A stretch of 64,000 nt of DNA from Eledone cirrhosa (taxonomy: Eukaryota), in the NCBI GenBank assembly GCA_964016885.1, contig OZ024741.1:226486001-226550000 (forward strand), written 5' to 3'. The translations under genes were made by a program, and so were the position numbers. Below, in pieces: positions 229 to 54,820 of this stretch. Under the pieces are notes generated by a model. The model ran no database searches. It saw only the letters and a program-made list of their open reading frames with translations, and was not told the DNA's origin. Each line of letters opens with the position of its first letter. Position 1 is the first letter of the stretch.

Positions 229-275
229 TGCTCCGAGGATTCCAGACATTTGTCTGGAAGAAACGATCGTCAGCA
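229..275 (+). ncRNA. Minimal type I hammerhead ribozyme, C4 core variant
   Basis: TGCT-CCGAGGA-TTCCAGACA tt TGTCTGGAA-GAAA-CGATCG-TC-AGCA: stem I TGCT/AGCA, 9-bp stem II, palindromic stem III, GUC site; related copy at 48490-48534. Confidence 0.75.
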
Positions 276-699
276 GTTAAATGCATTAAACAAAGATTTG
301 ATTGTTTTATATACTATATAAATGGCAATTTCTGTCTGTGTATCTGTGTATAACCAGTTGGCGCCTACACCAGTGATTCGATCCTAGTGAAACTTTAAAC
401 ACATGTTAAGCTAATATTCAGAAAAAGGATTGGCTAACTGGATTTCAATAAAAGTCAATAATGGAACCCCTGGTGACATCTTTACAATAGAGGAGGAAAG
501 ACAAGAAGTTTCAGTGAGAGAGGGGGAAGAGGAGATACTACTACTGTATGTGAAACCTTCCCTCCCACTACTCCCCTTCCACTTCCCACAACTTAGTCCT
601 CCAAAACGAAGCAACAACTTATTAGTAATATACATAAAGAAATTTCAAATAAAGCAGATGACAATGTAATTTTCGTTGACGACTGAACAGATGTCTCTG

Positions 700-774
700 T
701 ATATATATATATATATATATATATATATATATATATATATATATATATATATATATATATATATATATATATAT
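700..774. repeat. (TA)n microsatellite (one of dozens in the window)
   Basis: Perfect TA run. Confidence 0.95.
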
Positions 775-1122
775 GAATGAAAAATGGTGAGCTGTGTTGT
801 TGTAAATATGATATATATAATAACGAATTGGAAATAGAAGCCAGGACTATCCATCATCAGTGGTCTACTAGCCATCATAGCTATTTCTTCCAATTACAGA
901 CCATATACCTCCGGCTAGGGCAATACAATAACTAAATTAAGTTATCGGGATAAAAAGAGTTGGGTGGAGAAAGAGAGACAGGTAAACAAACACGAATGGT
1001 GAGGCAACGTAAAGAGAGGAAAAAAATGAGAAAATCAAGTCAATGATTCATTTGAACATAAGAACTTGCGAATATTGACGATAAGGCAAAAGACACATCT
1101 TGGCCGTATATATATATATATA

Positions 1123-1276
1123 TAACGAAGGAAATGTGGTAAGGAACCAGGTGGACCATAACGCACCTAAGTACTCAATACTTAGGGTAGTAGAGTGGGT
1201 AATAGGAACGAGTAGGACCCAGAATTAGCCGTCGAAACAGCTTGAGCTCAGCCCGTCGGGGTCCTACTCGTTCCTA
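1123..1276 (+). mobile_element. Short (TA)n-embedded repeat ending in a fold-back hairpin (copies 21383-21561, 29089-29263, 40981-41070 minus)
   Basis: Shared AACGAAGGA..GACCATAACGCA..AGTACTCAA.ACTTAGGG.AGTAGAGT core; terminal inverted arms GGAACGAGTAGGACCC/GGGTCCTACTCGTTCC. Confidence 0.75.
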
Positions 1277-1824
1277 TATATATATATATATATATATATA
1301 TATATATATATATATATATATATATATATATATATATATATATATATCACATCCACTGATATGGATTCTGAACACGTCCACACGCTTAGGTCGCATTAAG
1401 GTCAACTGCAGGAATCGGTGATAAGTTACAAAAAAGTGTGATGATCAATGACCTGGAAGTTGGCTCGCCATTAGATTAGTCCGAAGGACCCTGTCTCAGT
1501 TTTTACGGCGCATCCGGGAATTGAGCGACTCAACAGCAGAGGACAACTCTTTCGTGAAACAATTATTCTTTTGCCATTTGCCAATAAATTTGCAGACCAT
1601 ATTGGCAAATATAGTCGACACCAGTTCTCTGGAACAAATTGCAGCCTTGACGGAATTTTCTTGTGTGCCTACTTCGGCAGATTCACTCGTCGCTTCTTCT
1701 GCTTTTAAAACCCAGCCTGCTTCACCTTGTGAGGATTCAATGTTGAGAGCCATTGACGCGTTAACTCGTAAAGTAGCTAAACCTGTATTCAACCCTGCTC
1801 TTTTGAGACTTCGGAAAACTGAAA

Positions 1825-50840: not shown

Positions 50841-50877
50841 GTATGTATGTATGTATGTATGTATGTATGTATGTATG

Positions 50878-53247
50878 TTATCTCTTTCTCTTAATTTCGA
50901 GTATATTTTTGACCGGCCACCTTCCTGGTGGCAAGGCTGTAAAAGAAAAGAAATTGTCATCCCTTGAATCGCAAGAATGTCTTGCAAATTTTGAAGGTGC
51001 CAGCTATCGCAGCCATTTGTAGACTATGTATTAGGGAGCTGTGCTCTTTGTCCGCAAATCCAGGTTCAGTTATACATTGGTCCAAGCGGGTTGGTATATA
51101 ACCCGTAGCTCCAATAATGATGGGTAAGAAGCTAAAGGTGTATCTTGGATACTGGATTTGTAAACTCCTCGTCAATGGTCCGTAGATGTCCTCCTTCTGT
51201 ATTTTTCTGACAACGTTTACACAAGTGGGCAGCTGATCTCCACAACAGAACACGTTTTCAATGTGTGGTCCCAAACAACAATATCAGGCCGGTTGTGCTT
51301 TAATTTGGTGGCGTTTTTATTTTCAGGTTCCATCAGTATTCCTTAGTGCCATCTGTCTCAATATATTCTTCCCCATTTGTTTTCAATTTTGTTTTCCGAA
51401 GTGCGTTCCAGGCGGTTCTAGCTATCACATCGTGTCTCATGGTGAGGTAGTAGCGAGATAATATTCTTTCGCAGCTGGCTTACATCTTCGATCTTTGTTT
51501 TACATAGCCTGCATTTATTGTCAGCTGATGGCCCTCCTCTTTTGTGCAGCAGATATTTTATAGGGTGTTCTTGTTCCTGTATTGCATAGAGATATCCCTC
51601 AAGGCGTGATGTCATAAACTTGTCGGAACTCCATGCCAGGCTTTTTGAGTGGTTTATCCCCTCTATGGTCTGTGTTTTACGTCTCAAGTATCCGTGCACA
51701 ACTTTTTCTGTAAATTGGTCAATTTTTTCATCTTGTTTGAACATTGAATAGGATCTTCCGATTTCTCTGGATGAGAGAGTTATATCAGGCTTTATTCGAT
51801 ATCTCTCCTCCAGATCAGTGGCTATCCTAATGATATTTTTTTCTTCATGCTCATAAACCTGGGCAAGATGGTTGCCAACCTTTTTCCTCTGTTGAAGATG
51901 TTGCTTCAGTGTTACTATCCGGATCTCATATGATGTTAATATGGATTTTAGACCCCAGCCACCTTCCTTGCGTGAGAAGTATAGCCTATCCACATCACCA
52001 TTGATGTTAAAGTTCCCAGTAACACTGAGAAGTTTGCGAGTTCTAACATCCATCTGACTTAGTTCTTGCAATGACCAGTTCAGTAGGCCAAATGTTGGCG
52101 TTAGAATTGGCACAGCATAAGCATAAGAGGAGGGCACATCTCTTCCACGTTTTACTGCCAAATATGCACACTTGGACTCACCAAATTTCATTTTGATGTC
52201 TGTTGAAAATTGCGCAATGAGGTCCAATTGTTTTTTGATGTCATTGATATTTGGACCATACAACTTCAGGTCATCAACAAAGAAAAGATGGGAGATACTT
52301 CTGGACCAACTTCTTTGTCCACCTTGTTTCCTGAGTAGGTAAGATAGTGGGTTTAGTGAGAGAACGAAGAGTAGCACTGACAAGCTATCACCCTGAAAGA
52401 TACCCTTCTGGTAATGTATCTTATCAGACTTAACTTGCTCATTCTTACCTCTAAGGATCAAATTGGAGTACCAGTTCTTGGTCAGACGTTCAACAGCAGC
52501 TACCAGTGGTTGTTGAACTTTGGCTAACTGTAAAGCCTTAATAATCCACCCATGAGGTACACTATCAAATGCTTTTTGATAGTCCAGCCACACCACAGTC
52601 ATGTTTCTGTGATTCTTTGTTGTTTTTTCTTGAATCATTTTATTAGTTACTAGGTGATCTATGCAACCCCACACCTCCCACTTTCCACCAGCTTTCTCAG
52701 GTGTTATTAAGTTGTTGGTAGTACAGTGATCCTGTAAGAACAGGTTAAGGCAGCCAGTATATAATTTATACATGATGTTGTGGCAGGCAATTGGGCGGTA
52801 ATTTTTAGCAAGGGTGGTTTGGCTATTTTGGGGAATGAGGAGAGTAGTGGCAGTTGATAACTATCTGGGCAGTTCTTGTGTGCCTTTAATGGTTTCTGTA
52901 AACAGCCGTATGAGATCTTGCCGATAGAAAGTGAAATTCTTCAACCAGTATCCTGTAATGAGGTCTGGGCCTGGTGATTTCCTATTCGACATTTTCTGTA
53001 GAGCTGTTTCCAGTATTGACCCATCTATGTCATATTGTTTTGTCTGGACATGTTGGCAGTAGTCCTGTTCCAGTTCTTTTATCCATTTAGTTTCTCTGTT
53101 GAATCCGTCATCCGTTCCCCATACAGATCTCCAGTAGCTCTCAACCTGTTCTTTTGAAGGGGTGTCGTTTACAGGGATTGAGCTTTTGCCACCGAAGCTG
53201 AGATAAACTTATTTAGGATCTCTGGCAAACAATCTATTTAGCACTTG
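50878..53247 (-). mobile_element. R4/Dong LINE, 5' truncated, same family as 35220-39403
   Basis: WLDYQKAFDSV, QGDSLS, FVDD, KCRLC; internal deletion near 52125; TATG tracts on both sides. Confidence 0.93.
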
Positions 53248-53279
53248 TCTGTCTGTATGTATATATGTATGTATGTATT

Positions 53280-53957
53280 ATGTCAGGTCACCAGTTGGTG
53301 CTACTGGTAACATGCATCCCAGTACAACCTGTATCATGGTCGGGTCGTTGGCGATTAAACTGGCAACCCCACCAAGGTTTCTTGGTGAGGAGGGTGGCTT
53401 TGGACATCCTGCAGGACTAAAAACAAAATCTGTCAAAGGGAAAAGGAGCTCTTAAGAGTCAATGGCCAACCAAAATCACCGAGAGAGATGACCCCTTAGC
53501 CTTTGTCAAGGCATAATTCTAGGAGAAGGAAAACTCTGATGTAACACCTGCAACCCTGATGATATCCAATGATGTTGACTTATTCTTCTTTTGGGGAATT
53601 ATCATCTTGGTTAAGAGAGTGGGACTGGCTTTGTGCAGTGCCTTTGCTCACTATAAAAGCTTCACGGCACAGGCACTGCTTTATATCTGGAGATCTCTCT
53701 GCACTTGTCGTCACATGGTACCAAGGACCCAGCACTATGTGTCAATAATTGTCACAAGTGTAGTGTTTTTTACCAGAGTCTTCAAGTTGCTGGCTGGACT
53801 AAACAGTCACACTCGTTCAGCGCTTCGGTAGGGGTTCTCCTACGTGGATATAAAGTAGTGGCCGCACTCGAAAACGTGTTGGCAGCCACCATGTATGTAA
53901 CCCAGTACAACCTGTCGCATGGTCGGGTCGTCGACGGCTAAACCGACAACCCCACAA
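53280..53957 (+). mobile_element. Longest copy of the non-autonomous LINE-derived (possibly RTE-type) element plus a duplicated 5' module
   Basis: CTAGGAGAAGGAAAACTCTGA motif resembling RTE 5' UTRs, no ORF, 3' hairpin plus ATGT; 53895-53957 repeats 53312-53372. Confidence 0.7.
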
Positions 53958-54014
53958 TGTATATATATATATATATATATATATATATATATATATATAT
54001 ATATATATATATAT

Positions 54015-54820
54015 ATAAAATATTTCTTCATAGGGGCCTTTTAATCTTATAGCCTGGTCTAATTGATTTTTTATGTGGTTGATTATGCTAATTTGGAGAA
54101 GAAATGGCGTATATATATTATCAAGTGATTCTATGGACATACTTTATGGTATATTGCTCTGATTATTTAATTTAATAATTCATCATTGAGCCACATCGTG
54201 AATGGTTGCCAAAATATATATATCTGTGACTTTGTTTAGTTTGTGTATATGCAAAACTTTATATTTAATAATCTCCCATTTGGTTGAGATGCAATTTGGG
54301 CAATATTGGGCTGCGCTTTCTAGCAACCAGCCCACTCGCCGTAAGCAACGAATCACATTCTTTCTGACTTGACCACTGCCACGTCACGATTCTTAGCCAT
54401 TTTGAATCTGTTTCTGGCGGGGATCGCTTTAGAAAATTACTTGTTCTATGAGTTTGTTTCCTGACGAGTTCGAAACTCGAGATTTTATCCTTAATAGGTA
54501 TTTCAAAACGCGAACGAAACCCGAGGGTAGAGACATAATCCTGGTAAGAATGTACGAATGTCTTCTAACTTTAATTTTATACCTAATTGTGTATGGTTGA
54601 CGGTGTATTTAGTCGATTTCCACGTGCTGTTGAAATGTTGGGTAAATATTCTATTTAAGAGATTGGTATCGTTTATTTATCAAATATTTCTTCATAGGAG
54701 CCTTTTAATCTTATAGCCTGGTCTAATTGATTTTTTATGAGGCTGATTATGCTAATTGGTAGAGGAAATGGTGTATATATATATTATCAAATGATTCTAT
54801 GGACATACTTTATGGTATAT
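54015..54820 (+). mobile_element. About 665-bp terminally redundant HHR unit inside (TA)n
   Basis: 54017-54152 repeated at 54682-54817; HHR at 54456-54534 GTTTC-CTGACGA-GTTCG..CGAAC-GAAA-CCC ga GGG-TA-GAGAC. Confidence 0.88.

Follow-up and report, generated by a model that had tools for sequence, protein, structure and literature searches.

Introduction

Minimal hammerhead ribozymes have been described in the pseudo-long terminal repeats (pLTRs) of Penelope-like elements (PLEs; PMC4209133), and small tandem units that carry hammerheads of their own are known from animals as non-LTR retrozymes (PMC7229834), for which a PLE origin has been published (bioRxiv 10.64898/2026.07.22.740005). Hydra elements that target TA repeats and carry hammerheads are also on record, including Hydra-1_Obim of Octopus bimaculoides with its (TA)n preference and hammerhead (PMC8557442). 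PLE insertions are marked by inverted arms, partial tandems and an optional tail, signatures described as unseen in the target-primed reverse transcription of non-LTR elements (PMC8557442, PMC11167929), and the optional tail is explained by two internal start sites of the reverse transcriptase (RT) (PMC11167929). Here, we have analyzed a 64,000-nt stretch of the 3.0-Gb Eledone cirrhosa assembly (GCA_964016885.1, contig OZ024741.1, positions 226,486,001–226,550,000; this whole stretch is referred to as the window), which is AT-rich and crowded with (TA)n and (CA)n tracts. A reading of this stretch without database searches (the sequence-only reading) had seen in it more than 20 type I hammerheads from about ten unrelated non-coding repeat families, which it took for a TA-targeting system mobilized by Penelope elements. 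We conclude with considerable confidence that the motifs are type I hammerheads located at the 3' ends of PLEs and in four gene-less units, both of which were likely written into (TA)n by a Penelope RT-endonuclease. Both kinds of elements have already been published, and the window contributes new members rather than a new system.

The literature that we searched, which did not extend to subscription papers, Repbase, Dfam or the supplements of the 2026 preprint (the last of which could bear on this point), contained no genome-wide census of cephalopod hammerheads, and neither of two features reported below, a load of ~102 motifs per Mb and a pile-up of 5' ends at stem bases, was found in it.

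Results

Hammerhead motifs in the window

A descriptor that scores stems I–III around the core CUGANGA / GAAA / NUH, with one core deviation allowed and U3-A8 treated as equal to C3-G8, recovered 15 motifs with a score of at least 20 in the window vs. none in each of 20 dinucleotide shuffles, the motifs having three helices, an open helix I and this core or a variant of it. Its first version had yielded 15 window motifs at a score of at least 15 (shuffle mean 0.3, maximum 3), and the earliest, covariation-free descriptor was dropped as too strict, recovering only 2 motifs. Fourteen of the 15 (cores at 233+, 16107+, 17020-, 19874+, 27489-, 28694-, 40559-, 42701-, 45217+, 46073-, 46385-, 48244+, 48531- and 54461+, the sign giving the strand) had been noticed in the sequence-only reading, which overlooked the fifteenth (7018+); with its list of 23 motifs, this brings the total to 24. 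The other nine on that list are visible by eye and are atypical or decayed: 6679+ has an additional base before stem II and a helix III of 1 bp, 16598+ is of the same type with stem I broken, four are further copies of the family found at 16976 (19231- with a score of 19, ~19310+, ~19500+ and ~19790-), 20437- has a stem-loop II of ~120 nt, 28170+ has U3.G8 where most of its relatives have U3-A8, and 48077+ has a mutated GAAA. Schistosoma PLEs are already known to have U3-A8 cores and to carry an inserted base after A9 (PMC4209133). The claim of more than 20 real type I hammerheads is thus borne out, the motif frequency being far above that of dinucleotide-shuffled sequence (15 vs. 0).

The stems covary as well, another point on which the sequence-only reading had staked its claim. 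Ten pieces of the window and one protein served as genome queries to collect copies, with the best 40 matches taken per family query and the flanks read; families are designated by letters. Across the 36 distinct rows of family G, paired cells make up 96% and 5 pairs are changed on both sides, with a U-A/C-G switch in stem II in 14 rows, and in family B (17 rows, after exclusion of one further row that belongs to a different family) 96% are paired with five double changes, vs. 26–47% paired in slid-alignment controls; this support is somewhat inflated because the rows were chosen with motifs that contain stem letters. The tertiary 3-8 pair follows the same trend: when the descriptor places no constraint on positions 3 and 8, 43 of 49 matches in a 530-kb genome sample (described below) are C-G (37) or U-A (6), vs. 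none of the 14 matches in ten shuffles, and a tandem family with C3-G8 matches family G, which has U3-A8, at 77% identity over 178 nt. This covariation indicates that the hammerhead structure is under selection, and, as judged from structure and covariation only, the RNAs would self-cleave, probably mostly as dimers via the palindromic helix III.

An Rfam scan of the window is uninformative for these variants: no hammerhead family appears among the 150 matches listed out of 192, which are mostly microsatellite-driven microRNA models, all under the gathering score. A test for scrambled (non-circularly permuted) hammerheads with GAAA upstream of the core gave two weak matches in the window and no convincing case.

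Motifs at the 3' ends of coding PLEs

Fourteen of the 24 motifs, in 6 of 12 groups, belong to 3' pLTR ends of coding PLEs of the Hydra clade, the Neptune type and a third clade, the order being open reading frame (ORF), 3' untranslated region (UTR), hammerhead, tail and (TA)n in families B, C, D, H and I and in an element at 46771–48200. The view that the motifs stem from some ten non-coding families is not supported, and it is corrected within the window itself, where a broken Hydra-clade ORF (18093–18905) has motif 17020- at its 3' end.

This ORF is part of family D, which has seven copies in the window. The longest (16959–18905, minus strand) is a 5'-truncated Hydra-clade PLE whose ORF retains a broken RT thumb and GIY-YIG endonuclease with a CxCX5C linker (CNCRNRVDC), the N-terminus lying outside the recovered part, followed by the 3' UTR, core 17020 (CAGAAGA), a CUU site at 16980 and (TA)29. 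The others comprise five short ends in both orientations within TA tracts (19170–20029) and a short 3' end at 42619–42841 (minus strand, core 42701), and ORF-linked copies are also found in loci L267, L268 and L272. Family C is represented by a 3' pLTR with tail at 6974–7175 (plus strand, core 7018, GUA at 7063, TA on both sides). A near-full-length Hydra element in L260 has a 3' end 98% identical to it and an ORF with an RWK motif (RMRWKA) and a CxCX5C linker (CSCRKPDEC). In a family C copy at L047:1900–2900 (minus strand), the start of the ORF is joined to the tail on one side and to the 3' UTR on the other, apparently through an internal deletion of a kind that could found a gene-less family. 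Matches of 80–96% obtained by tblastn with the family C RT as a query were ignored, as they were caused by a 207-nt repeat inserted in the query.

Family B comprises a Hydra-type 3' UTR end at 48450–48960 (minus strand, core 48531 with U4C, GUC at 48493) and a relative at 226–275 (plus strand, core CCGAGGA with U4C, palindromic helix III, GUC at 271). The former is 92% identical over 542 nt to L284, where a Hydra-type endonuclease stands 1.2 kb upstream, and an endonuclease of this type occurs on the same strand ~1.2 kb upstream in 5 of 20 loci with the UTR in common; family B is thus putatively assigned to the Hydra type, by endonuclease similarity only. The link of the relative with motif 233+ to a coding PLE is one of homology only, its identity to the end of the L284 Hydra-type element being 71% over 139 nt.

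Families B, C and D share with the Hydra clade as described in PMC8557442 the (TA)n target and the 3' hammerhead, a C-terminal GIY-YIG domain with CxCX5C linker in C and D, the RWK motif in C and the Hydra-type endonuclease in B, and the ORF start in L260 resembles that of Hydra-1_Obim (compared by eye only). Their hammerhead sequences differ from the Hydra-1_oBim motif of File S2, so that they look like further families; they are also set apart by microsatellite-rich 3' UTRs of 1–2 kb and by most copies being short ends. The novelty for this taxon that the sequence-only reading had left open is reduced nonetheless, since Craig et al. (2021) list Hydra-1_Obim with both (TA)n preference and a hammerhead.

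Family H provides the 3' pLTR of a young Neptune-type PLE at 48202–48414 (plus strand, U3-A8 core 48244, GUA at 48273, followed by (TA)17). In 30 of 30 loci it ends at the identical base before (TA)n (the query contained that end), and the genome holds 11,602 first-look candidates. All 150 scored endonuclease matches are stop-free, several of them in 775-aa open frames, and each of six fetched loci has such a frame with RT, a CX4CxxC linker (CGRSNCGTC) and GIY-YIG, the latter above the Pfam cut-off and RVT_1 (E 4.9e-6) below it. With an RT, a linker of the CX2-5CxxC form and a GIY-YIG domain with CCHH, this frame fits, by its domains, Neptune as defined in PMC8557442. Family H resembles Neptune-type PLEs (PMC4209133, PMC8557442) also in its palindromic helix III, its inverted arms and its optional tail, and differs from them in being young, high-copy and strictly TA-inserting. 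A homologue search with the ORF gave 714 matches, almost all unnamed, with no clade name among the 120 listed. Full-length H elements are present in L192, L194, L195 and L196 (e.g., L196:1731–5194, plus strand), where a 409–410-aa ORF1 and the RT frame overlap in the -1 register and, in 7 of 7 copies, the overlap contains the run U UUU UUA, a likely ribosomal frameshift; frameshifted ORF1 is mentioned for PLEs in a figure legend (Fig. 1 of PMC8557442).

The parents of family I represent a third PLE type, besides the Hydra and Neptune types. Its copy at 6626–6898 (plus strand, atypical hammerhead with core 6679, ending at (TA)n) is 72% identical over 275 nt to the UTR behind an ORF in L270, and a subfamily copy at 16380–16899 (plus strand), which consists of an inverted arm, 3' UTR, decayed hammerhead (core 16598) and tail between TA tracts, is 87% identical over 505 nt to the UTR behind an ORF in L271. 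The decayed PLE at 46771–48200 (plus strand) has pLTRs at 46771–46989 and 47973–48202, a GIY-YIG ORF remnant extending to 47489 and the decayed hammerhead 48077. A Pfam scan of three window PLE fragments, one of which was given on the non-coding strand, found no family.

Gene-less units

Eight of the 24 motifs lie in four gene-less, circularly permuted, retrozyme-like units of 312–678 nt with one type I hammerhead each (families A, ~430 nt; G, 312–320 nt; F, 403–436 nt; E, 664–678 nt, with one of 702 nt), whose longest ATG-initiated ORF does not exceed 71 aa. Family A occurs at 15805–16354 (plus strand, inverted 5' arm, core 16107, GUA at 16137, TA on both sides) and in two-armed copies at 28401–29089 (minus strand, core 28694) and 40261–40825 (minus strand, core 40559, a subfamily). 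Family E is found as a permuted unit at 27021–27670 (minus strand, core 27489, GUA at 27422) and at 54018–54815 (plus strand, core 54461, GUA at 54529, TA on both sides), where a 664–666-nt unit has a 145-nt terminal redundancy. Family F has a permuted unit at 45059–45425 (plus strand, core 45217, GUC at 45251, TA on both sides), and family G has ~2.5 tandem 312-nt units with a short inverted arm at 45893–46700 (minus strand, U3-A8 cores 46073 and 46385, GUC at 46037 and 46349).

The units of all four families continue from their own 3' end into their own start, such end-to-start junctions being present in 29/30 loci for A, 25/25 for G, 16/25 for E and 8/25 for F. Two-hammerhead tandems were seen in A and G and only partial ones in E and F. 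Circular monomers fold better than shuffles in A (z ~-8 to -9), G (~-6) and F (-4.4). For family G, no RNA run was listed as containing it. Two contig runs of unspecified type from one sample contain thousands of G-like contigs with matching stem II changes, which speaks for presence, not expression, and DNA tandems of such units mimic circle junctions.

These units fit the non-LTR retrozymes of PMC7229834, with which they share tandem units of a few hundred nucleotides bearing one type I hammerhead each, low GC, co-occurring PLEs and, in A, G and F, strong predicted self-pairing. They differ in that their arrays are short (1–5 units), lie scattered in (TA)n and have arms and tails of the PLE type, and family E also in being 664–678 nt long and not unusually folded. 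No cephalopod is found in the parts of PMC7229834 and bioRxiv 10.64898/2026.07.22.740005 consulted.

Two further families are J, an older repeat with an inverted arm at 27830–28345 (plus strand, core 28170 reading TTGATGA), and M, at 20097–20445 (minus strand, core 20437, 3' end at (TA)33), which is young, its best 40 copies being 97–100% identical.

Insertion anatomy and TA targeting

In the window, 9 of the 15 descriptor motifs have (TA)6+ within 250 nt on the 3' side, vs. 17% of random positions. Genome-wide, a random sample of 53 stretches of 10 kb (530 kb), taken at round coordinates on large contigs, has (TA)6+ within 250 nt downstream of 41 of 54 motifs vs. 27% of random positions in the same loci, and upstream of 15 of 54 vs. 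a null of 28%, i.e., with no TA excess. The TA targeting proposed in the sequence-only reading is supported; motif 233+ lies 466 nt from any TA tract.

Inverted 5' arms are common to all families, most of which have two fixed 3' ends ~40–140 nt apart, and the combination of partial tandems, inverted 5' arm and optional tail is clearest in H, M, D, C and A, confirming the tandem or terminally redundant units with inverted ends described in the sequence-only reading. Arms stop at TA at one of the two sites in 41/46 cases for H, 35/36 for M, 26/30 for D, 20/26 for E and 11/14 for C; in family A, 24/51 do so and 13 more read on into the next unit. TA tracts also serve as repeated landing sites: A, I, D and M are chained within a 4-kb stretch (16266–20450), and H and B stand tail to tail at one TA tract (47973–48960).

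Genome-wide load

The random sample contains 54 motifs, 40 of them with a canonical core, vs. 0–1 in each of ten shuffles. The corresponding density of 102 motifs per Mb (bootstrap by locus 62–147), about half of that in the window, extrapolates to an estimated load of ~3x10^5 motifs per genome (1.9–4.4x10^5), as counted by a descriptor that misses families such as I and M. Published hammerhead counts are >6,000 for coral, ~5,000 for mussel, 126,247 for axolotl (28 Gb), ~9,000 for Xenopus and 4,000 for coelacanth, a comparison that is only rough because the descriptors differ.

Many further hammerhead families absent from the window are present in the random sample and in flanks (L032–L069, L197–L208, L266, L269, L277), some with a long or branched stem II and some in tandem, with units of 311 nt (L052), 465 nt (L194) and 533 nt (L269).

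5' ends of the insertions

The 5' ends were mapped on 202 incidental copies, with each family's own search loci excluded and duplicates removed. The cut site is spanned by 129 of them, and only 4 start within 4 nt of it; 5' ends defined by the cut site were accordingly discarded as a frequent class. Nothing in the insertions points to cut RNA as a template, and these counts suggest that uncut or circular RNA is the usual one.

The starts are not evenly spread. In family D, 12 of 40 copies begin at -49 to -44 from the cut site (1.2 expected), which is the 5' foot of stem I, and in families H (8/15) and K (10/15; another PLE family, outside the window) the preferred starts at ~-73 to -63 (~1 expected each) coincide with the 5' foot of a predicted hairpin, counts and expectations alike referring to copies that start within -140 to +60. 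This pattern is a strong hint and not proof, since the position windows were set after viewing the data, both arms of one insertion could be counted and the loci are non-random. A fold-back artefact of BLAST was considered as a source of the hot spots and rejected, as arm-less TA-flanked copies start alike and the loops stay sense.

Other elements of the window

Remnants of a further TA-flanked repeat, with the 3' half of a hammerhead only, are located at 1107–1274 (plus strand), 21376–21592, 29044–29286 and 40993–41114, and intact relatives, with a U3-A8 core and a long stem II, occur in L194 and L197. A decayed Penelope-like element at ~23440–26280 (minus strand) has RT and endonuclease remnants, a decayed hammerhead near 23467 and direct repeats at 23536–23787 and 26016–26282. 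Non-LTR elements with RT and a C-terminal restriction-like endonuclease motif are found at 31564–38942 and 50183–52860 (both minus strand) and at L279:5064–8486 (plus strand); we take them to be R4/Dong-like, of a clade that targets microsatellites. The two window copies are 93–95% identical. The window also contains a frame-broken Gypsy-type LTR retroelement with RT and integrase (1452–4858, plus strand) and a non-LTR remnant with RT and zf-RVT (56795–59882, minus strand), which we assume to be of an L1/Tx1-like clade. An abundant repeat of ~190–207 nt that resembles a short interspersed nuclear element (SINE) forms a tandem array at 21698–22703 and has dispersed copies at 8395, 8634, 13692, 30251–30591, 35460, 43963 and 62729; one copy interrupts the Hydra ORF in L260.

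Discussion

Overall, the picture of a TA-targeting system mobilized by PLEs has survived in part, namely as to real hammerheads, TA targeting, the PLE/retrozyme affiliation and the presence of a helper in the form of intact Neptune-type ORFs in this genome, while the ten or so non-coding families have given way to a mixture of coding-PLE ends and gene-less units. By analogy to an anole PLE studied in vitro, a PLE enzyme would nick TA DNA, reverse transcription would start at one of two sites behind the hammerhead, and the RNA copied would be uncut, either a linear multimer or a circle. Copying, which runs toward the RNA 5' end, would usually end early, and fold-back of the cDNA could then yield the inverted arm; the gene-less units may use the same PLE machinery in trans. 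The closest experimental counterpart, Poseidon PAc of Anolis (PMC11167929), has two internal RT starts leading to an optional tail and uses uncut RNA as an insertion substrate, features that match the two 3' ends and the copies spanning the cut site reported here; it differs in belonging to another clade, in having no microsatellite target and in a tail of ~34 nt vs. ~40–140 nt here.

Several observations weigh against this interpretation. The hammerheads of families D (U4A, CUU site, U.U at the stem II base) and B (U4C) deviate from the canonical core and may be slow or dead ribozymes, a U.U pair at the stem II base being known from axolotl retrozymes, and in vitro assays of retrozyme dimers gave cleavage for just 1 of the 9 tested (bioRxiv 10.64898/2026.07.22.740005). 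The covariation rows were selected by stem motifs, and relatedness of sequences can beat a shuffle control. The junction counts of A and G are inflated, since the search queries lay at or adjoined the junction, and the predicted fold of the E monomer does not surpass that of shuffles (z -1.5). A rough motif test left weak end classes in B (8/27 arms at TA, where the long-end anchor stopped short of the true end) F (11/27) and G (16/44 arms unassigned). No coding parent for J and M was found within 1.5-kb flanks, and a comparison of the A, E, F and G monomers with the ends of five coding PLE families revealed no sequence link, so that mobilization in trans is argued from shared insertion anatomy. 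Two strong matches of A and E to coding PLE ends are most likely nested copies of these units; the genome holds many more PLE families than the five compared.

In an improbable reading, A, E, F and G, too, are pLTR debris of coding PLEs with unsampled ORF parents and no true retrozymes are present. Each search returned only the best 40 copies, families C, D and B likewise seemed non-coding before wider flanks were fetched, and the L047 copy shows ORF start and 3' UTR joined by an apparent internal deletion. Nevertheless, A, G, E and F units continue past their 3' end with their own start, hammerheads on the same strand are spaced by 428–438 nt in A and 312–320 nt in G, and none of the loci read by eye has a PLE ORF joined to these units, the ORF matches in the flanks resembling neighboring insertions.

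Transport of the gene-less units by the R4/Dong-like elements instead of PLEs would have candidate enzymes at hand, with RT ORFs at ~31.5–39 kb and 50–53 kb of the window and a 1141-aa frame of similar type in L279, just upstream of it. We regard it as very unlikely, given that a window self-comparison revealed no match between the two groups and that A, E and G show the inverted 5' arms, partial tandems and optional tail counted as PLE signatures (PMC8557442, PMC11167929). It is harder still to believe that AT-rich palindromic repeats, multiplied as satellites through slippage and recombination of DNA, fold into these motifs by chance: despite the AT-richness of the genome and its abundant palindromes, shuffles produce 0–1 motifs per 530 kb vs. 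54 observed, the 3-8 pair covaries, and copies are scattered over many contigs with fixed 3' ends at TA. This reading is already refuted for the motifs themselves and leaves room for local growth of tandem arrays by DNA mechanisms such as unequal crossing-over, which is discussed in bioRxiv 10.64898/2026.07.22.740005.

The motif load and the arrangement of 5' ends deserve further attention. The pile-up could be accounted for by a start of transcription or by an RNA end that is protected, the alternative being release of the polymerase. We only tentatively suggest, and would rather doubt than assert, that this is the largest hammerhead load reported for an animal (~300,000, ~20x the axolotl density) and that the main role of the hammerhead is that of a fold which stays uncut and delimits the RNA to be copied. 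On this suggestion, transcripts likely start at the 5' foot, because a polymerase that travels 3' to 5' along RNA is expected to halt at the 3' foot of a stem.

For annotation, the load matters in that ~100 ribozyme motifs per Mb, spread over dozens of families and found mainly as short islands between TA repeats, would form a large share of the repeats of this genome. A single genome combines young intact Neptune-type ORFs, young gene-less passengers, the core variants U3-A8, U4A and U4C and thousands of insertion junctions, which makes both the mobilization of retrozymes in trans and the question of cut vs. uncut template directly testable. The purpose of PLE hammerheads has been stated to be unclear (PMC8557442); if the tentative suggestion made above is true, protected or separately started mini-RNAs would be spreading in a SINE-like manner on Penelope enzymes, and this would offer an answer.

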